NCBI GenBank assembly: GCA_050246735.1
Contig: JBFWVM010000001.1
Location: forward strand, 338,004 to 402,003
Length of the DNA: 64,000 bases
Reading direction: 5' to 3'
Source of the DNA: Parvibaculaceae bacterium
GTDB lineage: Bacteria > Pseudomonadota > Alphaproteobacteria > Rhizobiales > Aestuariivirgaceae
Both the position numbers and the translations under genes were made by a program. The notes under the pieces were generated by a model. It did no database searches. It saw nothing but the letters and a program-made list of their open reading frames with translations, and was not told where the DNA came from. Positions 13,118 to 29,099 of this stretch are shown piece after piece (positions within the stretch are counted from its first letter, which is position 1; each line of letters opens with the position of its first letter).

Positions 13118-13822
13118 ATGCGGAAACTGGCTGTCGCCCTGACTCTGGGATCGGCGTTGGGCTTGAGCGGACCGGCCTGGGCCGCCGATATCATCGACGA
13201 ATGCAATGGCGGCTGGGACGGCGTCTATGCCGGCGTCTTTGGCGGCGTGGGCTTTTCATCCTCGGACTGGGACGGCAGCGACGGGGATATTCAGGAATTC
13301 GAAGCGCCGGTCGATGAAACGCTCAACGATACCGCCTTCCTGCTGGGTGGACTGGTCGGTGTCAATTTTCAACACTGCGACTGGGTATTCGGCGCGGAGG
13401 GCGACATTGCCTGGCTCCACTCCAGGGAGCGTGAAAACCTCGACGGCGCCGAAGGCCTCGATATCACGTCCAAGATCGATTTCCTCGGCTCCGTGCGCGC
13501 CAGAGTCGGTTATGCGCCGGGTCGCACCCTGTACTATCTGACCGGCGGCCTCGCCTTCTCGGATGCCAAACATACGTGGGATGACCATGGCAGTGTTGAT
13601 TTCGACCTGTCCCCGGAGAGCGTCAAGCTCGATTTCGGCTGGGTCATCGGCGCCGGCATCGAGCATGCCTGGACCGACAATCTCCTGGTCCGCATCGAGG
13701 GGCTATATTTCGATCTCGGCTCCGAGGATGGCGAAGTCGACAACGAGGAAGAAACCGACACGTTCGAGGTGGATCAGGACATCTTCGTCGGCCGGATCGG
13801 CATAAGCTACAAGCTCAACTAG
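13118..13822 (+). CDS. Omp25/RopB-type outer membrane beta-barrel
   Basis: Signal peptide; WDGVYAG, GAEGD, VRARVGYA, GWVIGAGIEHA. Confidence 0.88.
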   Translation: MRKLAVALTLGSALGLSGPAWAADIIDECNGGWDGVYAGVFGGVGFSSSDWDGSDGDIQEFEAPVDETLNDTAFLLGGLVGVNFQHCDWVFGAEGDIAWLHSRERENLDGAEGLDITSKIDFLGSVRARVGYAPGRTLYYLTGGLAFSDAKHTWDDHGSVDFDLSPESVKLDFGWVIGAGIEHAWTDNLLVRIEGLYFDLGSEDGEVDNEEETDTFEVDQDIFVGRIGISYKLN

Positions 13823-13852
13823 CCGTCCGATCCGGTGCGGGGCCGACCGGCC

Positions 13853-14632
13853 GTGACGCATTGGCAAAAATACCATGCCGCATGGTCCAAGCTCGAAGCG
13901 CCGCTGCGGCCCAATGCCGAGACGCTCGGCAGGATCCACGAGCTCACCGGCGGCGCCGGTCCAGCCCTGCTGCTGGGCGTGACGCCAGAGCTCGCCAGGG
14001 CCTTCGATCCGGTGCTCGGCGTCGACAAGAACAAGGCGATGATCGACCATGTCTGGCCTGGCGACACCGCGACCCGAAAGGCCCTGCATGCCGACTGGCT
14101 CGATCTCGACGAGCCGAAAGGCCACTTCGCCGCGGTGGTCGGCGACGGCAGCCTCAATGCCGTGACGACCTTGCGGGAGGTCGGGCTCGTCCTGACGCGC
14201 GTCGTCGATCTCATGGCCCCCGGCGGACGTTTCGCCTGCCGGCTCTACGAGCGCCCGCAGCAGCCTTTCACCGAGGACCATCTGCGCGAGGCCGGTTCAC
14301 GGCGCGCCACGCTCAATTTCCATGCCTTCAAATGGCAGCTCGCCATGCATCTCGCCGACAGGGTCGGCGCATCGATGCCGGTCGTGCTCATCCGCGAACG
14401 CTTCAACGAGCTGTTTCCCGACCGCGACCGGCTCGCCCGCGACACCGGCTGGTCCCGTGACATCATCGACATGATCGACATCTACAGGGGCTCGCCCGCC
14501 ATCTATGTGTTCCCCGACCGCCGCGAGTTCCTCGACGCCCTGCCGAAAGGCGTCTGCGACGTGCGGTTCGCGCCTTCGGGCAGCTATGATCTTGCCGAAT
14601 GCTGTCCTATGCTCACCTTCCGCAAGAACTGA
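13853..14632 (+). CDS. Class I SAM-dependent methyltransferase-like protein
   Basis: LLLGVTPE, GVDKN, DWLDL, VVGDGSLN pattern; start codon uncertain. Confidence 0.65.
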   Translation: MTHWQKYHAAWSKLEAPLRPNAETLGRIHELTGGAGPALLLGVTPELARAFDPVLGVDKNKAMIDHVWPGDTATRKALHADWLDLDEPKGHFAAVVGDGSLNAVTTLREVGLVLTRVVDLMAPGGRFACRLYERPQQPFTEDHLREAGSRRATLNFHAFKWQLAMHLADRVGASMPVVLIRERFNELFPDRDRLARDTGWSRDIIDMIDIYRGSPAIYVFPDRREFLDALPKGVCDVRFAPSGSYDLAECCPMLTFRKN

Positions 14633-14680
14633 GGCCGTTCCCGTCTGAAGACCGTTCCGCAGAGATCCGATGTCGAAGGG

Positions 14681-15997
14681 GTGGCATGGCCCCCCATCGC
14701 GCTCGACGAGAACGCCGTGCTGACGGCGCTTCTCGCCCAGCTCGATGCGACCCAATGGCTGACGCCCGCCGAGCTCGAGGAGAACCAGGCCCGCCAGCTC
14801 GCCGTCGTCAGCGAGCACCACAAGGCCCATACGCCAGCCTTCGCGGCGCGTCTCAAGACCGCGAGGGTGAGCTATGTCGACACCATGGAGCGCCTGCGCC
14901 ACATCGAGCCCCTGTCGCGCGGCGCCGTGCAGGCCCTGGGCGAGCAGTTCTTCGCCAGGCAGGTGCCGCGCCACCATCTGCCGCTCGGCGCCGCCAAGAC
15001 CTCGGGCTCGACCGGCGAGCCGGTCGCGGTGCGGAAGACCGCCGTCAACCGGCTGTTCTGGTCGGCCTTCACATTGCGCGACCATCTGTGGAACGAGCGC
15101 TCCTTCAGCCTCAGGATGAGCTCGATCCGCGCCAATATCAGCAGATATGTCGATGCCAGGGACTGGGGCGCGCCGGTCGGCAACCTGTTCAGGACCGGCC
15201 AGGCGCAGGGCATTCCGATCACGACCGACATCCGCGAGCAGCTGAGGCTGCTGCGGCGCTTCCGTCCCGAGCTCCTGATCGTCTATCCCAACAACCTGGA
15301 TGCGTTCGTGTCCATCTGGGAAAAAGAGGGCTTCGGTCTCGCGGGCCTTCGCCATCTCAAGACCATCGGCGAGACCGTGAGCGCCGATCTGCGTCGGCGC
15401 GCCAGGCAGACCACCGGCCTCGAGATCGAGGACAACTACTCTTCGCAGGAAGCCGGTACCATCGCCATTCAGTGCCGGGCGAGCGGCCTCTATCACGTCA
15501 TGTCGGAAGCGCTGATCGTCGAGGTCCTCGATGAGCGCTGGGCGCCGTGCCGGGAAGGGGAGATCGGCCGGGTGGTGGTGAGCGACCTGCACAATCTGGC
15601 GACGCCGCTCATCCGCTACGATATCGGCGATTACGCCGAGGTCGGCCCGCCCTGTCCCTGCGGCCGCGGCCTGCCGACGCTGAAGAGAATACTGGGCCGC
15701 GAACGCAATCTGGTGCGGCTGCCCGACGGATCGCGGAACTGGCCGCTCGTCGGCTTCCATCACTATGATACGGTCGCACCGATCCGGCAGTATCAGCTGA
15801 TCCAGCATACAATCGACGAAATCGAGCTCAGGCTGGTCGCCGACGAGGATCTGAGCCGCGAGCAGGAGGAGCAGCTCATCGAGATCGTCAGGCGGTCGTT
15901 AGGCCATCCGTTCAGGATCACGATCACGCAATCGCGGGAAAGGCTGCCGGTGGGGCCCAACGGCAAGCTCGAAGAGTTCATCTGCAGGCTTCCCTGA
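14681..15997 (+). CDS. Phenylacetate-CoA ligase/CapK-like adenylate-forming enzyme
   Basis: TSGSTGEP P-loop, YSSQEAG, PLIRYDIGD, GRERN. Confidence 0.85.
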   Translation: MAWPPIALDENAVLTALLAQLDATQWLTPAELEENQARQLAVVSEHHKAHTPAFAARLKTARVSYVDTMERLRHIEPLSRGAVQALGEQFFARQVPRHHLPLGAAKTSGSTGEPVAVRKTAVNRLFWSAFTLRDHLWNERSFSLRMSSIRANISRYVDARDWGAPVGNLFRTGQAQGIPITTDIREQLRLLRRFRPELLIVYPNNLDAFVSIWEKEGFGLAGLRHLKTIGETVSADLRRRARQTTGLEIEDNYSSQEAGTIAIQCRASGLYHVMSEALIVEVLDERWAPCREGEIGRVVVSDLHNLATPLIRYDIGDYAEVGPPCPCGRGLPTLKRILGRERNLVRLPDGSRNWPLVGFHHYDTVAPIRQYQLIQHTIDEIELRLVADEDLSREQEEQLIEIVRRSLGHPFRITITQSRERLPVGPNGKLEEFICRLP

Positions 15998-19017: not shown

Positions 19018-22000
19018 TCATGCATGATAATCTTGCAAGGGACGCACGTCGAGAGTGCCGGCCTTCTGGGCGGCGATCGCCTTGGTGACCGCGAGGATAC
19101 CGGGAAGCGTCGTGTAATGCGGCACCTTCTGCAGCAGGGCCGTCTGGCGGATCGGCTTCGAATCGGATTCCGAGACCTTCGATTCGGTGGTGTTGAGGAC
19201 AAGCTGGATCTCGCCGTTCTTCAGGGCGTCGACGACATTGGGGCGGCCCTCCAGCACCTTGTTGACCTTGGTGCAGGCGAGCCCCTTGGCCTCGAGGAAA
19301 CGCTGGGTGCCGCCCGTCGCGCAGATGCGGAAGCCCAGATCGATGAGCTTCCTGACGGCGGGCAGGATGCGCGGCTTGTCGGCCTCCCTGACCGAAATGA
19401 AGACGGTGCCGGCGAGCGGCACCCGCATGCCGGCGCCGAGCTGGCTCTTGGCGAAGGCCATGTCGTAGCTCCTGTCGAGGCCCATGACCTCGCCCGTCGA
19501 GCGCATTTCGGGCCCCAGGAGGACATCGACGCCGGGAAAGCGATTGAAGGGGAAAACGGCTTCCTTTACAGCGACATGAGTCAGTTTCTTGGGCTTCAGC
19601 CTGAAGCTGGCCAGGCTCTCGCCCGCCATGACCCGCGCGGCGATCTTGGCCACCGGCTCGCCGATCACCTTGGCGACGAAAGGAACGGTGCGCGAGGCGC
19701 GCGGATTGACCTCGAGGATGTAGACCTCGCCGTCCTTGACGGCGAACTGCACGTTCATGAGGCCCACGACCTTGAGCGCCAGGGCGAGCTCGCCCGCCTG
19801 CTTCTCGATCTCGTGGACGATCGTGCTTTTGAGCGAATAGGGCGGCAGGGAGCAGGCGCTGTCGCCCGAATGGATGCCGGCTTCCTCGATGTGCTCCATC
19901 ACGCCGGCGATGAAGACGTCCCTGCCGTCGGCGATGGCGTCGACGTCGACTTCGATGGCGTTGGACAGATATGAGTCGATGAGGACCGGGCTGTCGCCCG
20001 AGACGACCACGGCCTCGGTGATGTAGCGGGCGAGCTGCGCCTCGTCGCGCACGATCTCCATGGCGCGTCCGCCCAGGACGTAGGACGGCCGGATGACGAC
20101 CGGGAAGCCGATCGAGCGGGCGATCTTGCGCGCCTCCGCGGCCGATCGGGCGATGCCGTTGCGGGGCTGACGCAGCCTGAGCTTCCTGAGCAGCCTGGCG
20201 AAGCGGTCGCGGTCCTCGGCGAGGTCGATGGCGTCGGGCGTCGTGCCGAGGATCGGCACGCCGGCGCTTTCGAGGGCATGGGCGAGATTGAGCGGCGTCT
20301 GGCCTCCGAACTGGACGATGACGCCCTTGAGCCTGCCGTTCGACTGCTCGGCGGCGATGATCTCGAGCACGTCCTCGGCGGTCAGTGGCTCGAAATAGAG
20401 CCGGTCGGAAGTGTCGTAGTCGGTCGACACGGTCTCGGGATTGCAGTTGACCATGATCGATTCATAGCCGGCGTCATGCAGCGCGAAGCAGGCATGGCAG
20501 CAGCAATAGTCGAATTCGATGCCCTGGCCGATGCGGTTGGGACCGCCGCCCAGGATGACGATCTTCTCCTTCGCCGAGGGCCTGGCCTCGTTGCCGTCGT
20601 CACCGGCAAGGCCCGTCTCGTAGGTCGAGTACATATAGGCGGTGGGGGAGGCGAATTCCGCCGCACAGGTGTCGATGCGCTTGAACACCGGCCTGACGCC
20701 GAGCTTGACGCGATGGGCGCGCACCCGGTCCTCGCTCGAACGGATGAGCTCGGCCAGGCGGCGGTCGGAGAAGCCCATGGCCTTCAGCGCCCGGAAGTTC
20801 ACAGCATCCCTGGGCAGGCCCCAGGCGCGGATCTTCTCCTCCGTCTGCACGATCTGGGCGATCTCGCGGATGAACCAGGGATCGTATTTGCAGGCCGCAT
20901 GGATCTGCTCGACGGTGGCGCCCAGCCGCAGGGCCTGCGCCAGCTTGAGGATGCGGTCGGGGCGGGGAGCGGCGAGGGCGGCGCGGATGGCGTTCTTGTC
21001 GTCGTCCTCGCCTATCCCGGCGATCTCGATCTCGTTGAGCCCGGTGAGGCCCGTTTCCAGTCCACGCAAGGCCTTCTGCAGCGATTCCTGGAAGGTCCGG
21101 CCGATGGCCATCACCTCGCCGACCGACTTCATGGCGGTGGTCAGCGTGGGCTCGGCGCCGGGGAACTTCTCGAAGGCGAAACGCGGGATCTTGGTGACGA
21201 CATAGTCGATGGTGGGCTCGAAGGAGGCCGGCGTAACGCCGCCGGTGATGTCGTTGGCAAGCTCGTCCAGCGTATAGCCCACGGCGAGCCGCGCCGCGAC
21301 CTTGGCGATCGGGAAGCCGGTCGCCTTGGAGGCGAGGGCGGAAGAGCGCGACACGCGCGGGTTCATCTCGATCACGACCAGGCGCCCCGTCTGCGGATTG
21401 ACGGCGAATTGCACGTTGGAGCCGCCGGTCTCGACGCCGATCTCGCGCAGCACCGCGACCGAGGCGTTGCGCATCATCTGATATTCCTTGTCGGTCAGGG
21501 TCAGCGCCGGGGCGACGGTGATCGAATCGCCGGTGTGGACGCCCATCGGATCGACGTTCTCGATCGAGCAGATGATGATGCAATTGTCGTCGCGGTCGCG
21601 CACCACCTCCATCTCGTATTCCTTCCAGCCGAGCACCGATTCCTCGATCAGCACTTCGGCGGTGGGCGAGGCGTCGAGCCCGCTCTCGACGATGTCGAAG
21701 AACTCCTCGCGGTTGTAGGCGATGCCGCCGCCGGTGCCGCCGAGGGTGAAGGAGGGGCGGATGATGCAGGGGAGCCCGATCTCGAGCATCGCCTCGAACG
21801 CCTCGACCAGTGCGCGGTTGCGGTAGCGCTTGAGCCGCTCGGGCTCGGTCGCCGTCCACTGGCGCTCGAAGGCCTCGACATCGCCGCCTTGGCCCTTGAG
21901 CGTCTCGGCCTCGGCCGCGAAGGCCTCGCGGTCGGCCTCCTTGAGAGCCGAGGCGTTGGCCAGCATGGATCTGGGCGTCTCGAGGCCGATCTTCTTCATC

Positions 22001-22404
22001 GCCTCGCGGAAGAGCTCGCGGTCCTCGGCCTTGTCGATGACGTCGGCCTTGGCGCCGATCATCTCGACGCCGAATTTCTCGAGCACCCCCATGCGGTTGA
22101 GGGAAAGCGCGGTGTTGAGCGCTGTCTGCCCGCCCATGGTCGGGAGCAGGGCGTCGGGGCGCTCCTTCTCGATGATGCGGGCGACGACTTCGGGCGTGAT
22201 CGGCTCGATATAGGTGGCATCCGCCAGATCCGGGTCGGTCATGATCGTGGCCGGATTGGAATTGACCAGGATCACCCGGTAGCCCTCGGCCTTCAGCGCC
22301 TTGCAGGCCTGGGTCCCGGAATAGTCGAACTCGCAGGCCTGGCCGATAATGATCGGTCCCGCCCCGATGATGAGGATGGATTTGATGTCTGTGCGTTTTG
22401 GCAT
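19018..22404 (-). CDS. carB: Carbamoyl-phosphate synthase large subunit
   Basis: [30 protein letters not shown]; two ATP-grasp halves; MGS domain. Confidence 0.98.
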
Positions 22405-22474
22405 GCGAGGGGGTTCCCTACACGGGGAATCCCGCCAAGCCAAGGAGATTCCTGCCCTGCCGGCAAGGCCGAAA

Positions 22475-23047
22475 TCAGGGCCGCCGCTCCGAAAACAGGC
22501 AGCCTAGAAGATGTGCTTCCCGGCCGTCTTCCACGGCAAGTGTCATGACATCGCCGAACCGAGTTGTTCCGACGATGAAAGTGATCTCGCCGGGCGCAAA
22601 TAGATCGGAATGACGGCCGACGAACGCCGTCCCCTCCCATGCGAGTTTCTGGCGCAGGCGAGCCGGGTCGAATTCGAGCTCTTCTTTAGGTTTCAGGACA
22701 AGTGCGATCGTCATTTCGGTGGGCGTGAGGCGCTCGACGAAGGCCGCATAGAGGAACGACTTGTCCGTGAGGCGCAGAGCCCACTGACCTTGAAATTTTT
22801 TGATCTGCCAGGGCACGTTTCCCACGATCAATGTTTCCTTGACCAGATCGGGAGGGGCTATCGTTCCCGCAAGGTCCAGGGCCTGGTGTCGTTCAAAGGG
22901 AAGCCTGCGGGGCACCGCTCCGACATGGTCATCCAATGCGAAATTGAGGCAGCGGTCGAAAAGCTTGGCGTCATCCATTCCCCAAGCCGGGACACTGCCG
23001 ATCGCCGGCAAAAGCGCCAGGGACAATGATCGGACCAAATTGCGCAT
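22475..23047 (-). CDS. Hypothetical secreted protein (190 aa)
   Basis: Signal-like [23 protein letters not shown]; no family recognised. Confidence 0.55.
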
Positions 23048-23100
23048 CGGCCACCCCCCGGGAATGATGACCGAAGTCTTCGCCCGCGATCGGGGCCGGA

Positions 23101-23418
23101 TTACGGCGTCGCGGTCTTGCCGTCGTCCGGAGCGGCCGCCACCGCCGATTCGCGGTTGATGCATTTGATCTGGCGGAAGACCTGCTTGCGGTCGGCGGTC
23201 CGCATCCGCTCATAGGTCAAGGCCTCGGCGAAGCCGTTGTCGCGGCACCAGGCATCGGCGGTCGGCTTGCCGCAGCTGGCGCGGTCCGACATGCACAGCG
23301 CCACCGGCCGGCCGGAGGCTTCCGGGTTGAAGAAGTTGCGGGTCGTCGATTCGGCCCCGGCCAGGGACACGGACAAGGTCAGGGCGGTGGCGATCAGGAC
23401 GGGCAGACGGACGGACAT
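23101..23418 (-). CDS. Small secreted 4-Cys protein (105 aa)
   Basis: Signal peptide; C-x6-CGKPTADAWC...C; GGAG upstream. Confidence 0.7.
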   Translation of the reverse strand: MSVRLPVLIATALTLSVSLAGAESTTRNFFNPEASGRPVALCMSDRASCGKPTADAWCRDNGFAEALTYERMRTADRKQVFRQIKCINRESAVAAAPDDGKTATP

Positions 23419-23466
23419 GACGATACTCCAGCGTGACGCTTTTGCCACAGCATTGCATAAATGACG

Positions 23467-23495
23467 CTGAACGGGGGCTTCATCCGTCGTTCATC
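23467..23495. promoter_or_regulatory. Shared motif copy A: CTGAA-N7-TTCATC-N5-TTCATC
   Basis: 23/29 identical to 26772-26800 with identical spacing. Confidence 0.6.
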
Positions 23496-23555
23496 GTTGA
23501 CGAAAAGCCGGCCATCCGGCGATTGATGGAGTATTAACGTTCTTTGGGGCGCGTC

Positions 23556-24146
23556 ATGCAAATGAAATCATTGAGATTAACCGGCATCGTCGCCATTGCG
23601 GCCGGGCTTGCGGCATTTTCGCCCGCCATGGCCGAGCGCGGCGAGGGCGCCTATTCGGCGGTCAGGACCAATTTCATCGGCGGCGCCTACACCTACAAGC
23701 TCGATCCCCGTTTCAATCGCAAGGAAGTCGCCTACGCCACGAGCGAGAAGCCGGGCACCATCGTCATCGAGACGCGCAAGCGCTTCCTCTACCTGGTGCT
23801 CGCCGACGGCAAGGCGCTGCGCTACGGCATCGGGGTCGGGCGCTCGGGCTTCACCTGGAAGGGCACCGAGCGCATCAGCCGCAAGGCGGAATGGCCCGAC
23901 TGGCGCCCGCCAGCGGAAATGCTGGAGCGCCAGCCCGGCCTGCCGGAATTCATGGAAGGCGGACCCGGCAATCCGCTGGGCGCGCGGGCTCTCTATCTCG
24001 GCGCCACCGAATACCGCATCCATGGCACGGCACAGCCCTGGACCATCGGCCGCGCCGTCTCCTCGGGATGCATCCGCCTCACCAACGAGGACGTGATCGA
24101 CCTCTATGGCCGCGCCAGGGTCGGCGCCAAGGTCATCGTGAACTGA
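23556..24146 (+). CDS. L,D-transpeptidase (ErfK/YbiS family)
   Basis: NPLGARALYL, YRIHGT, IGRAVSSGCIRL. Confidence 0.95.
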   Translation: MQMKSLRLTGIVAIAAGLAAFSPAMAERGEGAYSAVRTNFIGGAYTYKLDPRFNRKEVAYATSEKPGTIVIETRKRFLYLVLADGKALRYGIGVGRSGFTWKGTERISRKAEWPDWRPPAEMLERQPGLPEFMEGGPGNPLGARALYLGATEYRIHGTAQPWTIGRAVSSGCIRLTNEDVIDLYGRARVGAKVIVN

Positions 24147-25539
24147 GCGCCCTGTCGAGCACCGTGAACAGCCGGTGCGATCGCGACTGCGCCACGTTGA
24201 AGCGCATGTAGCTCCTCGCCGACTGCGACGGGCTGAACACGTTGCCCGGCGCCAGCACGACATTCTCGGCCAGGGCGCGCCGGGCCAGGTCGGCCGAATC
24301 GAGTCCGCCGGGAAGCTTCATCCACAGGAACATGCCGCCCTTCGGCTCGTGCCAGGGCGTGAAGCCCAGGGCCTTCAGACGCTCCAGCGTCTCGCCCATC
24401 GCCTGCGCCAGGCGCCGGTTGAGGGCGTCCACATGCTTGCGGTAGAAGCCGTCGCCGAGCACGGCGAAGACCAGCTCGGCTGCGAACGGATCGCTGCCGA
24501 ACGAGGTGGCGAGCTTCATGTCGATGAGCCCCTCGATCCATTCGGCGCGGGCGGCGATGAAGCCCGAGCGCAGGGCGGCGGAGAGCGTCTTGGAGAAGCT
24601 GCCGATATGGATGACGCGCTCGAGCCCGTCGAAGGCGGCGAGGCACGGCCCGGCCTCGCGCTCGAAATCCATGAAGATGCCGTCCTCGACGACGGTGAGG
24701 CCATGCGCCTCGGCGAGGTTGAGCAGGCGATGGGCGTTGGCGGGCGAGAGCGCGGCGCCCGTCGGGTTGTGCAGCGCGGAATTGGTGATGTAGAGGCGCG
24801 GGCGATGCTCGGCGAGGATCCGGGCGAAGTTCTCCGGGTCCGGCCCCGAAGGCGTGTAGGCGACGCTGACGATGCGCGCGCGATGGGCGCGCAGCATGGC
24901 GAGGAAATTGAAATAGCAGGGATCGTCGACCAGCACGGTGTCGTCGGGCCCGACGAGGACGCGGCAGACGACGTCGATGGCCTGCGTGGCGCTGTCGGTG
25001 AGAAGGATCTGGTCGGGCGAAGCGGCGATGCCTTGCTCGCCCAGGCGCCGCGACAGCCATTGGCGCAAGGGAGCGAGGCCGCGCGGCTCGCCATAGTCGG
25101 TGAGGCAGGAAGCAGGACCGCGCCGCGCCAGGCCGCGCATCGCCTTGAGCAGCGCCTCCTGCGGCAGCCATGACGCCGGCAGCCAGCCGCAGCCGGGCTT
25201 CAGCATCCTGTCGCCCGCCTCGAGCGACTGGCGCGACACCCACAGGGGATCGATGGCGCGGTCGAGCTTCGGACCGATCTCGGCCAGGTTCAGCGGCGGC
25301 GCCGCGCCCGCCACGAAGAAGCCCGATCCGCGGCGCGAGGCGATGGTGCCGTCAGCCACCAGCCGGTCATAGGCGTCGACCACGGTCGACTTGGAGACGC
25401 CCTGCGACTGGGCGAAGCTGCGGATGGAGGGCAGCCTGCCGCCGGGCTTGAGGAGGCGGGCCGCGATGCGGTCGCGGATCGCCTGCATGACCTGCTCGAC
25501 GCGGGTCCCAGGCAGGCCTGAGGACGGGCGATAATCCAT
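24133..25539 (-). CDS. MocR/GabR family GntR-aminotransferase regulator
   Basis: wHTH LPSIRSFA...VSKSTVVDAY; GSFSKTL PLP lysine. Confidence 0.93.
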   Translation of the reverse strand: MDYRPSSGLPGTRVEQVMQAIRDRIAARLLKPGGRLPSIRSFAQSQGVSKSTVVDAYDRLVADGTIASRRGSGFFVAGAAPPLNLAEIGPKLDRAIDPLWVSRQSLEAGDRMLKPGCGWLPASWLPQEALLKAMRGLARRGPASCLTDYGEPRGLAPLRQWLSRRLGEQGIAASPDQILLTDSATQAIDVVCRVLVGPDDTVLVDDPCYFNFLAMLRAHRARIVSVAYTPSGPDPENFARILAEHRPRLYITNSALHNPTGAALSPANAHRLLNLAEAHGLTVVEDGIFMDFEREAGPCLAAFDGLERVIHIGSFSKTLSAALRSGFIAARAEWIEGLIDMKLATSFGSDPFAAELVFAVLGDGFYRKHVDALNRRLAQAMGETLERLKALGFTPWHEPKGGMFLWMKLPGGLDSADLARRALAENVVLAPGNVFSPSQSARSYMRFNVAQSRSHRLFTVLDRALSSR

Positions 25540-25627
25540 CTGTATGGGTTCTGTCATCAATACAGTTCGGTCCGATTGTACTCCTCTGTCTCTGGAGATG
25601 CCAAGGCCGGCGCGCCAGGAAAGGGTC

Positions 25628-26488
25628 ATGGACAAAACCCTCATCGGCTGGATCAACGGATTTGCCGGGGTCGTGATCTTCTCGGCCTCGCTGCCGGCGA
25701 CGCGCGCGGCGGTCGCCGATTTCGATCCGGTCTTCCTCACCGTGGCGCGGGCCTCGATCGCGGCCGTGCTGGCGATCCTCGTCCTCCTGGCCTTCCGGCA
25801 GGAGCGGCCGCGGCGCTGCGATATCGTCCCGCTCCTGGTGACCGCCCTGGGCGTGGTCATCGGCTTCCCGCTGCTGACGGCGCTCGCCCTCCAGCACGTC
25901 ACGGCCGCCCATTCGATCGTGTTCGTCGGTCTCTTGCCGCTCGCGACGGCGTTCTTCGCGGTGCTGCGCGGCGGCGAGCGCCCGCGGCCGGCCTTCTGGC
26001 TCTTCTCGGCGCTCGGCAGCGCGCTGGTGGTAGGCTTCGCGCTGGCGCAAGGGGTTCGGGCCGCCCCTCGAGGCGACCTGCTGATGCTCGGCGCGATCAT
26101 CGCCTGCGGCCTCGGCTATGCCGAAGGGGCGCGCCTGTCACGCCGGCTCGGCGGCTGGCAGGTGATCTGCTGGGCGCTGGTCATGGCGTTGCCGGTGATG
26201 GGGCTGATCGCCGTCCATGAGCGGCCCGCAAGCTGGACCGGGATCGGCGTGCCGGCCTGGATCGGCCTCGCCTATGTCTCGGTCTTCAGCATGCTGGTCG
26301 GCTTCTTCTTCTGGTACCGGGGCCTGGCGCTGGGCGGCATCGCCGCCGTCGGCCAGTTGCAGCTGTTGCAGCCCTTCTTCGGCCTGGTGCTGGCCGCCCT
26401 CCTGCTTCACGAAAAGGTGAGCGCCGCCATGCTGGCCGTCACGCTGGGCATTGTCGTCTGTGTCGCCGGGGCGAAGCGATTCGCCTGA
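25628..26488 (+). CDS. EamA/DMT transporter
   Basis: About 10 hydrophobic segments; GQLQLLQPFFG; divergent from MocR. Confidence 0.92.
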   Translation: MDKTLIGWINGFAGVVIFSASLPATRAAVADFDPVFLTVARASIAAVLAILVLLAFRQERPRRCDIVPLLVTALGVVIGFPLLTALALQHVTAAHSIVFVGLLPLATAFFAVLRGGERPRPAFWLFSALGSALVVGFALAQGVRAAPRGDLLMLGAIIACGLGYAEGARLSRRLGGWQVICWALVMALPVMGLIAVHERPASWTGIGVPAWIGLAYVSVFSMLVGFFFWYRGLALGGIAAVGQLQLLQPFFGLVLAALLLHEKVSAAMLAVTLGIVVCVAGAKRFA

Positions 26489-26686
26489 TCAGGCGTCGAA
26501 GCAGCCATCCTCGGCGCAGGGCTCGAGCGTCATCGGATGACGGGCCGGCCAGGCCTGGTTCTTCGTCATCACGGTAATGTTCGCCTTCCTGACCTCGGCG
26601 CGCAGATAGGCGCGGTTGTCACTGGCGAAAGCTCCGGCATTGAGCATCAGACCGGCCAGGAGCACGGTGGCGACAGCGGTTCTCAT
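26489..26686 (-). CDS. Small secreted protein (65 aa) with C-terminal CxxxxC
   Basis: MRTAVATVLLAGLMLNAGAFA signal; SD GAGAGGG; ends PCAEDGCFDA. Confidence 0.7.
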   Translation of the reverse strand: MRTAVATVLLAGLMLNAGAFASDNRAYLRAEVRKANITVMTKNQAWPARHPMTLEPCAEDGCFDA

Positions 26687-26736
26687 AAGCCCTCTCAGCG
26701 GCACTCAAGGACATTGCACATATTGCAAGCCTAACT

Positions 26737-26752
26737 TGCAAGTCTAATGCCA
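26737..26752 (-). promoter_or_regulatory. Candidate sigma-54 -24/-12 promoter
   Basis: Minus strand TGGCATTAGACTTGCA fits TGGCAC-N5-TTGCW with correct spacing and one mismatch. Confidence 0.6.
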
Positions 26753-26771
26753 TGGCACCCTCGAACCCGGC

Positions 26772-26800
26772 CTGAATGGGCCGTTCATCTGCCGTTCATC
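26772..26800. promoter_or_regulatory. Shared motif copy B
   Basis: CTGAATGGGCCGTTCATCTGCCGTTCATC. Confidence 0.6.
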
Positions 26801-26824
26801 TGGGGAATCCGGTGTCCCTGCGCG

Positions 26825-26852
26825 AAAAAAGGCCCCCCTTTTCAGGGGGGCC
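26825..26852 (-). terminator. Rho-independent terminator
   Basis: Minus strand GGCCCCCC-TGAAAA-GGGGGGCC-TTTTTT. Confidence 0.85.
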
Positions 26853-26982
26853 AGGTAAGCGGCTCTGCGAGGGGATCGGGGGGACAGTGAGCCGCTGGGG
26901 AGGAAGGTTCCGGAAAGCAGATACGCTGTCTGCGAGAGGGGCGGGTGTTAGACCGCGCAACCGCTTTCCGGAATTCGGGAAC

Positions 26983-27045
26983 CTAACGGAGACTTGGGAC
27001 GCCCGCGGCGGCGGGCTGTACTGCAGGGGCCGGTGATCTGCGCAT
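26983..27045 (-). CDS. Candidate 20-aa small ORF MRRSPAPAVQPAAAGVPSLR
   Basis: GGAGG 5 nt upstream of ATG; TAG stop just before the first stem. Confidence 0.35.
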   Translation of the reverse strand: MRRSPAPAVQPAAAGVPSLR

Positions 27046-27107
27046 CTCGTCCTCCGGGGTGAATCTCTAGCGTGCAAGCAAGCTAGCCGGGCGCGCCGTA
27101 ATCGACC

Positions 27108-27136
27108 CTGAACGGCGCATTCATCCTGCGTTTAGG
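27108..27136. promoter_or_regulatory. Shared motif copy C (second TTCATC degenerate)
   Basis: CTGAACGGCGCATTCATCCTGCGTTTAGG. Confidence 0.45.
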
Positions 27137-27258
27137 TTTTTGAACGTTGCGTCAACAGTTGCGGTCAAATCGCCGGCCTCGCAGCGGGGGCCGTCTGCGG
27201 CCAGATAGCGCGGTCCCGCCGCAGCGACTTGGTCTAGTCTCCCCGCCAAGAGGTGCCC

Positions 27259-28692
27259 ATGGCGGACGAACTCAACTGGCTGAACGCGACCGCGCTCGTG
27301 AAAGCGTTCCGGAAACGGAAGCTCTCGCCCGTCGACGTTCTCCGCGCCTGCCTCGACCAGATCGCGCGGCACGACGGCAGGCTCAACGCCATGTGCCTCG
27401 TCGACGAGAAGTCGGCCATGAGGCAGGCCAGGGCCAGCGAAGCGCGCTGGCGCAAGGGCGCGCCGCTCGGCGCCGTCGACGGCGTGCCGGTGCTGGTCAA
27501 GGACCTGATCCTCGTCAGGGGCTGGCCGACGCTGCGCGGCTCGAAGACGGTCGAGCGCGACCAGGCCTGGGATGAGGACGGTCCGTCGGTCGCGCGCCTG
27601 CGCGAGGCGGGAGCCGTCCTCGTCGGCCTCACCACCACGCCGGAATTCGGCTGGAAGGGCGTGACCGATTCTCCGCTCACCGGCATCACGCGCAATCCCT
27701 GGGACGTGACCAGGACGCCGGGCGGCTCCTCCGGGGGCTCAGCGGCCGGGATCGCCGCGGGCTATGCGCCTCTGGCGCTCGGCACCGATGGCGGCGGCTC
27801 GATCCGCATACCGGCCGGCTTCTCCGGCATAGTCGGCCTGAAGCCGTCCTTCGGCCGCGTGCCCGCATGGCCGCTCTCGCCCTTCGGCACCGTCTCCCAT
27901 ACGGGACCGATGACGCGCAGCGCCGCGGACGCGGCCCTCATGCTCACCGTCATCGCCAGGCCCGATGTGCGCGACTGGCATTCGCTGCCCTATGATCCGC
28001 GCGACTATGGCAAGGCGTTCGGCAAGGGCGTCAAGGGCCTGCGCGTCGCCTTCAGCCCGGCGCTCGGCCATGCCGAGGTCGATCCGGAAGTCGCCGGCGC
28101 CGTGAAGACGGCGGTCAGGGTGCTGCGCGGCCTCGGCGCCAGGGTCGACACGGTCGATCCGGGCTTCGCCGATCCCGCGCCCACGTTCCGGGTCCTGTGG
28201 TGGTGGGGAGCGCGCGCTCTGCTCGCGCGCCTGCCGGAAGACAGGAAGGCGCTGCTCGATCCGGGGCTTGCGGATGTGGTGAGGCAGTCGCTCGCGATCA
28301 CCCCGGAGGAGTATTTCGACGCGGTCAAGGCGCGCGGCGCGCTCGGCGTCGAGATGCGCCGGTTCATGCAGAAATACGATCTCCTGGTCACGCCCACTCT
28401 GCCGATCCCCGCCTTCGAAGCCGGCAGACTGTCGCCGGCCGACACTGACGGCACCGGCAAATGGGTGAACTGGACGCCGTTCAGCTATCCCTTCAACCTG
28501 ACCCAGCAGCCGGCGGCGAGCGTGCCTTGCGGCTTCACCAAAGCGGGCCTGCCGATCGGGCTTCACATCGTCGGGCGGATGTTCGACGACGAAGGCGTGC
28601 TGCGCGCCGCCCACGCCTATGAAGAGGCGGGCGGCTGGAGCGGCAGGCGTCCGCCATTGCCGGGCGCCGGCACGTTAGCGGAGAAGACATGA
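27259..28692 (+). CDS. Amidase-signature family amidase
   Basis: VKDL Lys; GGSSGGS; GTDGGGSIRIPA. Confidence 0.95.
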   Translation: MADELNWLNATALVKAFRKRKLSPVDVLRACLDQIARHDGRLNAMCLVDEKSAMRQARASEARWRKGAPLGAVDGVPVLVKDLILVRGWPTLRGSKTVERDQAWDEDGPSVARLREAGAVLVGLTTTPEFGWKGVTDSPLTGITRNPWDVTRTPGGSSGGSAAGIAAGYAPLALGTDGGGSIRIPAGFSGIVGLKPSFGRVPAWPLSPFGTVSHTGPMTRSAADAALMLTVIARPDVRDWHSLPYDPRDYGKAFGKGVKGLRVAFSPALGHAEVDPEVAGAVKTAVRVLRGLGARVDTVDPGFADPAPTFRVLWWWGARALLARLPEDRKALLDPGLADVVRQSLAITPEEYFDAVKARGALGVEMRRFMQKYDLLVTPTLPIPAFEAGRLSPADTDGTGKWVNWTPFSYPFNLTQQPAASVPCGFTKAGLPIGLHIVGRMFDDEGVLRAAHAYEEAGGWSGRRPPLPGAGTLAEKT

Positions 28693-29099
28693 GAGGGAGA
28701 AGCTTCCTCGAGGTCTTGCGGCACGGGCGGGCCAGCTGGTCCATCGCCGCGCTCTATGTCCTCCTGCTCCCGATCCTGCTCGGCATTCTGCCGAAGCCTG
28801 AGCCCACCGCGGAGTTTCTTCTGCTGCGCGATCTCGCGACCGCGGAGATCTGCGCCATGCCGGGCTCGGGTGCCGCACCCGGCCAGCCCGCGCAGCATCA
28901 GCCCGATTGCATTCTATGCCCGGCAGCCTGCCTCTGTGCCGGGGCCTCGGCGCCGCTGCCGCCGCCGACCGCTGCCGCGGCTGAACCTTTCTTCGTCCGC
29001 CTCGCCCTCGCCGTGCCGGGGCCCCGGGACTTCGCGCTGCCGGCCTCGCGGCTCTTCGTCTCGGATATCCAGTCGAGGGGGCCTCCCAGCCTCGCCTGA
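28689..29099 (+). CDS. DUF2946-like protein, CruR/CutF-type uORF candidate
   Basis: N-terminal TM/signal; HQPDCILCPAAC; Pro-rich linker; C-terminal QSRGPP. Confidence 0.75.
   Translation: MRGRSFLEVLRHGRASWSIAALYVLLLPILLGILPKPEPTAEFLLLRDLATAEICAMPGSGAAPGQPAQHQPDCILCPAACLCAGASAPLPPPTAAAAEPFFVRLALAVPGPRDFALPASRLFVSDIQSRGPPSLA

Follow-up and report, generated by a model that had tools for sequence, protein, structure and literature searches.

A four-half-site composite promoter upstream of small secreted-protein genes and a small RNA in a Taklimakanibacter-like bacterium, with a FeuP orthologue as the most likely regulator

Composite boxes in the window

The window analysed here is a 64-kb stretch of a Rhizobiales genome (positions 338004-402003 of contig C1 in a 5.6-Mb assembly of 65.7% GC, hereinafter G000), from a genus that public records group with Taklimakanibacter, among Aestuariivirga-like Rhizobiales. 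It contains three copies of a repeated element, hereinafter copies A, B and C, each upstream of a small transcription unit on the minus strand, and these copies are candidate promoters of the regulon of the two-component system FeuP/FeuQ. The original prediction described the element as CTGAA-N7-TTCATC-N5-TTCATC. A scan of the whole window recovers the three proposed copies, with no mismatch at 23467 (A) and 26772 (B) and three mismatches at 27108 (C), and finds no further match in the rest of the 64 kb. The count of three compares with 0.09 expected by shuffling, and no shuffle reached three. The identity of copies A and B at 23 of 29 positions was reproduced, and the minus-strand ATG codons at 23418, 26686 and 27045 do lie 49, 86 and 63 bp away from copies A, B and C. 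The parsing of the element held in part: the 29-mer does contain its first three half-sites, but these belong to two inverted half-site pairs within ~55 bp, not to a CTGAA followed by two direct TTCATC repeats.

All features of the three units lie on the minus strand. The composite box of copy A (23456-23495; minus-strand sequence GATGAACgacgGATGAAGcccccGTTCAGcgtcaTTTATG) has half-site centres at about −59, −48, −37 and −26 and scores 51.8 with the matrix described below. Its −10 box, CAAAAG (23439-23444), places a predicted transcription start site (TSS) at ~23432 through the fixed-distance yAnnnT consensus, and its target gene encodes a 105-aa secreted protein with four cysteines and no Pfam family (23101-23418). 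The box of copy B (26761-26800; GATGAACggcaGATGAACggcccATTCAGgccggGTTCGA) is the top site of the genome, with a score of 57.2; it is followed by the −10 box CATTAG (26744-26749), a predicted TSS at ~26737 and the gene for a 65-aa secreted protein, likewise of no Pfam family (26489-26686). The box of copy C (27097-27136; CCTAAACgcagGATGAATgcgccGTTCAGggtcgATTACG) scores 45.6 and is followed by the −10 box TAGCTT (27080-27085), a predicted TSS at ~27073 and a small RNA (sRNA) of ~250 nt (26825-27073), delineated by a 9-genome alignment and RNAalifold.

Boxes B and C are 336 bp apart, and the sRNA unit and the 65-aa unit are adjacent. In three sister genomes (G003:C1:215885-226338, G007:C7:388177-398687 and G002:C22:6187-16556), ~7 kb of DNA including an AraC-type gene lies between the two units. 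Paired composite boxes, 200-290 bp apart, also occur in Rhizobiaceae, namely in Agrobacterium tumefaciens (G143, C2:1524628-1524863) and in two other genomes (G098, C1337:144084-144409; G171, C64:249725-250029).

Architecture and orientation of the promoter

The architecture was derived from 40 sites of 25 genomes, aligned with their flanks. On the minus strand of the window, the full element reads TGAAC-N6-TGAAC-N5-GTTCA-N6-GTTCA-N12-yAnnnT and spans ~55 bp with a half-site period of 11 bp. Specifically, the four half-sites are arranged →→←← and form a 38-bp quasi-palindrome, the fourth, (G/A)TTCA, being located 11 bp downstream of the third. A −10-like sequence, yAnnnT, begins 12 nt past the fourth half-site (A at position 51 in 37 of 40 sites, T at position 55 in 30 of 40), while no −35 hexamer is present in the 40-site alignment. 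For a TSS placed 7 nt past the −10, the half-site centres fall at about −59, −48, −37 and −26. This is the layout of OmpR/PhoB-type promoters: tandem repeats with an 11-bp period, a proximal pair at −40 to −24 in place of the −35, and a conserved −10.

The element has a direction. Its functional orientation, nATGAAC-N4-GATGAAC-N5-RTTCAG and then the gene, is on the strand opposite to the one on which the pattern had been written. At every top site, only one side has the start codon of a gene or small open reading frame (sORF), 20-75 nt past the −10, and at three sites (C20:66119, C10:69673 and C25:46234) the other side holds only the 3' end of a convergent gene. The suggestion that copy A also controls the divergent L,D-transpeptidase gene (23544-24146) and copy C the amidase gene (27253-28692) thus finds no support, because there is no conserved −10 at the mirrored position and these three genomic sites lack a gene on that side. 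In a sister species (L014), however, an L,D-transpeptidase gene is a direct, same-orientation target of the box.

Genome-wide set of promoters and its conservation

A first matrix, derived from the initial matches, recovered roughly a dozen strong copies in G000. For the main scan, we used a 61-column matrix made from the loci of relatives only, with a cut-off of 22. Seventeen sites on 12 contigs reach this score, compared with ~2.4 matches in the shuffled genome even at a cut-off of 12. The motif is therefore much commoner than expected by chance, and the regulon, which had been taken for a local one, is genome-wide. All 17 sites and all three window copies contain TTCA-N7-TTCA, mostly twice and in inverted orientation.

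The majority of the targets are small proteins with a signal peptide and no Pfam family (65, 105, 77, 100, 121, 126, 109 and 84 aa). The others are one secreted protein of 1153 aa, one DUF1127 protein, a few small cytoplasmic open reading frames, one AraC-family regulator and the sORF/sRNA unit of the window. The AraC-family regulator (C17:91193-92264; AraC_binding_2 and HTH_18 domains, 313 aa) is preceded by a complete composite box whose −10 is extended (TGtTATGTT) and is kept only within the genus; the arrangement suggests a regulatory cascade from FeuP to AraC. At C25:46203-46770, two minus-strand composite boxes ~500 bp apart precede the genes of two small secreted proteins, one of 121 aa and one of 109 aa, the latter rich in Gly and Tyr.

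The motif is conserved well beyond the genus. With at most one mismatch, the strict pattern occurs in 4-11 copies per genome in 11 of 11 genomes of the genus (0-1 copies for the reversed-pattern control), in each of the 18 genomes sampled from the family and, within the order, in five of 12 other families; those without it have diverged copies (TGAAC-N4-nATGAAC). Conservation in relatives, one of the checks proposed with the original prediction, is thus found family-wide and in other Rhizobiales families. The four-half-site composite itself is present in 1-6 copies per genome in Rhizobiaceae, including A. tumefaciens and Rhizobium, with a control count of 0, indicating that the composite is order-wide and not lineage-specific. 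Two targets of the window are also conserved together with their boxes. Orthologues of the 105-aa gene are present in Taklimakanibacter, Aestuariivirga and related metagenome-assembled genomes, with the box upstream down to 31-45% protein identity, and orthologues of the 65-aa gene lie behind the same box in relatives (L002, L011, L027 and L030).

A FeuP orthologue as the candidate regulator

The genome encodes an orthologue of FeuP in an operon that carries the box itself. The operon (C2:12436-14908) comprises genes for a small secreted protein, a 223-aa PhoP/PmrA-like response regulator (C2:12871-13542) and a histidine kinase, putative FeuQ (13529-14908), which is translationally coupled downstream of feuP. 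The response regulator is 76% identical to FeuP of A. tumefaciens, with the next hit at 40%, and the two proteins are reciprocal best hits. The A. tumefaciens regulator in turn falls into a 90% identity cluster whose members include proteins listed by NCBI as 'response regulator FeuP [Ensifer]'; neither NCBIfam nor an extensive search for homologues gave the regulator of G000 a name.

The promoter of the feuP operon (C2:12383) reads ATTCA-N6-GTTCA-N12-TATTTT, namely the proximal pair alone at the same distance from the −10, and is one of three strict matches in the genome. An initial scan for boxes near regulator genes demanded all four half-sites and did not pick up this operon. The same proximal box precedes the orthologous feuP operons of two genomes from other genera or families (G013 and G020) and of five Rhizobiaceae, which makes eight genomes with G000. 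The presence of the proximal pair on the operon implies positive autoregulation. Because of the reciprocal best hit, the box on its own operon and the match to a published candidate FeuP motif, including its position relative to mapped TSS (see below), we consider the FeuP orthologue, with FeuQ as its kinase, the most likely regulator of the boxes, an assignment made from comparative sequence data.

Comparison with FeuP systems of Sinorhizobium and Agrobacterium

For the FeuP/FeuQ/FeuN regulon of Sinorhizobium meliloti, PMC3616915 and PMC12714254 cite Griffitts et al. 2008 and Carlyon et al. 2010. In S. meliloti, Schlüter et al. 2013 (PMC3616915) found de novo a 'Motif 3', TTCA-N7-TTCA, upstream of 12 mapped TSS; five of the genes were already known to depend on FeuP, and the motif was put forward as the FeuP site. 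In Table S17 of that study (PMC3616915), same-strand boxes end at −23 to −25 at ndvA (TTCAGAAGCCATTCAT), SMc01586 and feuN (TTCATTTGCCATTCAG), while opposite-strand boxes are located at −47 at SMc02389 (TTCATCTGGCGTTCAT) and SMc01557. With the TSS placed as predicted, 7 nt past the −10, the elements of G000 would have the same geometry, as their proximal pair then ends at −24 and their inverted distal pair at −47. Motif 3 and the present element share the half-site, the 11-bp period and even the spacer (TTCATCTGCC/TTCATCTGGC GTTCA). On pSymB, GTTCA-N6-ATTCA occupies −41 to −26 of the mapped TSS of SMb20838, and GATGAT follows 12 nt later.

The two systems are also alike in their targets, which in S. 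meliloti are mostly small hypothetical secreted proteins, and in having the box on the operon of the regulator. They differ in several respects. The motif of the 2013 paper has two half-sites; the four-half-site inverted composite, which unites both boxes in most promoters of G000, Agrobacterium and Rhizobium, is not described there. None of the Rhizobiaceae targets tested is homologous to those found here, a conserved sRNA is among the targets, no relationship between feuN and the small gene that precedes feuP is detectable, and chvA/ndvA is missing from G000. The latter gene is the classic FeuP target, and its expression is lowered in A. tumefaciens feuPQ mutants (bioRxiv 10.64898/2026.01.20.700542). 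The box and the −10 are present in the chvA/ndvA promoter of A. tumefaciens, Rhizobium and a third genus.

Proposed mechanism

Taken together, each copy is probably an activator-dependent promoter of an envelope-stress regulon governed by FeuP/FeuQ, a two-component system of the OmpR family. FeuP is an OmpR/PhoB-family response regulator of the PhoP/PmrA-like branch, whose phosphorylated form would bind as head-to-tail dimers to (A/G)TTCA repeats with an 11-bp period. The proximal pair GTTCA-N6-GTTCA (about −40 to −24), which points to the gene and lies 12 bp upstream of the −10, would replace the missing −35, and bound FeuP would recruit housekeeping RNA polymerase in the manner of PhoB and PhoP. 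At the distal inverted pair TGAAC-N6-TGAAC (about −61 to −46), a second dimer could bind, so that two dimers would face each other head-to-head, presumably with a gain in affinity or cooperativity. By analogy with Sinorhizobium and Agrobacterium, the inducing signal may be osmotic or envelope stress. The original prediction had assigned the repeats to the OmpR/PhoB family from their 11-bp period, an assignment that the 40-site architecture and the FeuP match favour. It had further proposed that small secreted proteins and an sRNA form the regulon of an envelope-stress two-component system; the 17 targets, the FeuP orthologue and the published motif speak for such a regulon.

Enterobacterial PhoP and PhoB boxes are direct hexamer or heptamer repeats with an 11-bp period that replace the −35. 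The PhoP half-site, TGTTTA (reverse complement TAAACA), is close to the TGAAC/TAAAC found here. The likeness extends to the direct repeat ~12 bp upstream of the −10, to the absence of a −35 and to the regulator, which here belongs to the PhoP/PmrA/QseB-like branch. However, the half-site sequence, the signal and the regulon are different, and an inverted second dimer site is regular only in the present system.

Several points weigh against the assignment to FeuP. Motif 3 is only a 'candidate' FeuP site even in S. meliloti (PMC3616915), and a clear box is found in only 3 of ~25 chvA promoters of Rhizobiaceae, a count that depends on rough anchoring of start sites. The small gene before feuP has no similarity to Rhizobiaceae FeuN detectable by BLASTP, so that it is 'feuN-like' by position only, and Pfam assigns no domain to the small proteins whose genes precede feuP. 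A search of five Rhizobiaceae genomes yielded no homologue of the 105-aa target, indicating that the target sets differ between families. Finally, likeness of sequence alone is not specific: GAAC-N7-GAAC is also the alphaproteobacterial LexA core, and TGA-N8-TGA is the reported CenR motif.

Alternative regulators

The strongest competitor, which we nevertheless regard as unlikely, is a different transcription factor, either a paralogue of FeuP or a regulator that binds the →→←← palindrome as a dimer of dimers, with the link to FeuP being coincidental. A 38-bp quasi-palindrome is indeed unusual among OmpR-family sites, some genomes carry a FeuP paralogue of 55% identity, and the FeuP site used for comparison is itself computational. 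However, G000 contains a single FeuP-like protein. TorR-, VirG- and OmpR-like regulators were rejected because their orthologues are missing from G013, which is motif-positive; the AraC regulator behind one site is genus-specific while the motif is family-wide, so that it is a target; and the intergenic region next to the MocR regulator gene of the window contains a palindrome of another sequence. ChvI was rejected on its motif, in which GCC recurs every 11 nt. Phyletic profiles did not discriminate among the OmpR-family regulators, since families first scored as 'motif-negative' carry diverged copies. Quite improbable is a set of sites for another known OmpR-family regulator, notably CenR, whose motif in Rhodobacter sphaeroides is the direct repeat TGA-N8-TGA (PMC9275681). 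This repeat is contained in TGAAC-N6-TGAAC and has the same period, the CenR regulon is an envelope regulon rich in signal-peptide proteins and L,D-transpeptidases, its sites lie just upstream of the −35 and are co-directional with the gene, as for an activator, and G000 encodes a CenR-like regulator (C3:165476). Yet the CenR sites of R. sphaeroides read TGAC/TCAC-N7-GTGA rather than TGAAC and have no inverted second pair, and no box is found near the CenR-like gene of G000. No tol or cenR targets were seen among the 17 sites (tolQ was not examined), and the link of TTCA-N7-TTCA to FeuP-dependent genes in S. meliloti and to the feuP operon in eight genomes points to FeuP instead.

Two further readings are highly improbable. 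Each copy contains GAAC-N15-CGTT on the plus strand, similar to the EcfG promoter GGAAC-N16-CGTT, and could be read as a promoter TGAAC-N15-CGTT of an EcfG-like extracytoplasmic function sigma factor that drives the L,D-transpeptidase and the amidase. Small secreted proteins and DUF1127 proteins are typical targets of the general stress response, which fits this reading. However, the spacing of N15 and the first base T depart from GGAAC-N16-17-CGTT, the three genomic sites with a convergent neighbour have no gene on the plus side, and a conserved sigma-70-type −10 is present at a fixed distance on the other strand. The middle TTCATC would be an unexplained conserved spacer, and the mapped TSS of S. 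meliloti are on the side predicted by an activator. Alternatively, the boxes could be LexA operators of the SOS response, since the alphaproteobacterial LexA box is a direct repeat GAAC-N7-GAAC and both pairs contain GAAC-N7-GAAC or GTTC-N7-GTTC. The LexA boxes of the genome itself, those of lexA and recA, however lack the T/GAT prefix and the inverted partner, the 17 targets include no repair gene, and the sites are upstream of the −10, in the position of an activator. LexA boxes of the forms GAAC-N7-GAAC and GTTC-N7-GTTC are located upstream of lexA and recA at C4:~250210-250280 and C14:~33140; they have the GAAC core in common with the FeuP half-site, though not the flanks.

The sRNA behind copy C

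Aligned across nine genomes of the genus, copy C shows an almost invariant box and −10, while the 5' region that contains the sORF is variable. The original prediction left open an sORF or an sRNA at this place: a conserved sRNA of ~250 nt is indeed present, but the 20-codon sORF in its 5' part (27045-26983) is not conserved, and its ATG is missing in G008. Together with the single-stranded tracts described below, these two features make the transcript look like a non-coding sRNA of anti-Shine-Dalgarno type rather than a dual-function one. Its 3' core of ~140 nt is nearly invariant in the nine genomes and is predicted by RNAalifold to form a 13-bp and an 8-bp stem as well as C/U-rich single strands. 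The stems are TTCCGGAAAGCGG/CTGCTTTCCGGAA and AGCGGCTC/GAGCCGCT, and the single-stranded parts include CCUUCCUCCCC as well as CCCCCC/CCCCUC tracts. An intrinsic terminator follows, with a hairpin at 26831-26852, whose sequence varies between genomes, and a U-tract at 26825-26830. No Rfam family matches the region at E ≤ 1 (window positions 22000-29000).

Tentatively, and at slightly less than an even chance, the →→←← composite may be the ancestral, order-wide form of the FeuP promoter, with FeuP directly driving a conserved C/U-rich trans-acting sRNA in this lineage. If so, the envelope-stress response would gain a post-transcriptional arm undescribed for FeuPQ. The candidate FeuP box was known already; the four-half-site composite and the sRNA target are new, and both are modest extensions. 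Sinorhizobium requires FeuPQ for symbiosis and Agrobacterium for virulence traits, while the DNA site of the system has so far been a computational candidate. The box, at an unchanged distance from the −10, now appears across distant Rhizobiales families, the feuP operon included, which offers concrete sites for footprinting and would make FeuP regulons predictable from sequence alone. For an unstudied Taklimakanibacter-like genus from soil, it yields a list of 17 targets, mostly unknown small proteins predicted to be periplasmic.

Between the units of copies A and B, the window contains a further regulatory-looking sequence. A palindrome, CTGTAT-N14-ATACAG, is located at 25540-25600, between the gene of a MocR/GabR-type regulator (24133-25550, minus strand) and that of an EamA transporter (~25629-26488, plus strand), and is probably a MocR operator unrelated to the FeuP box.

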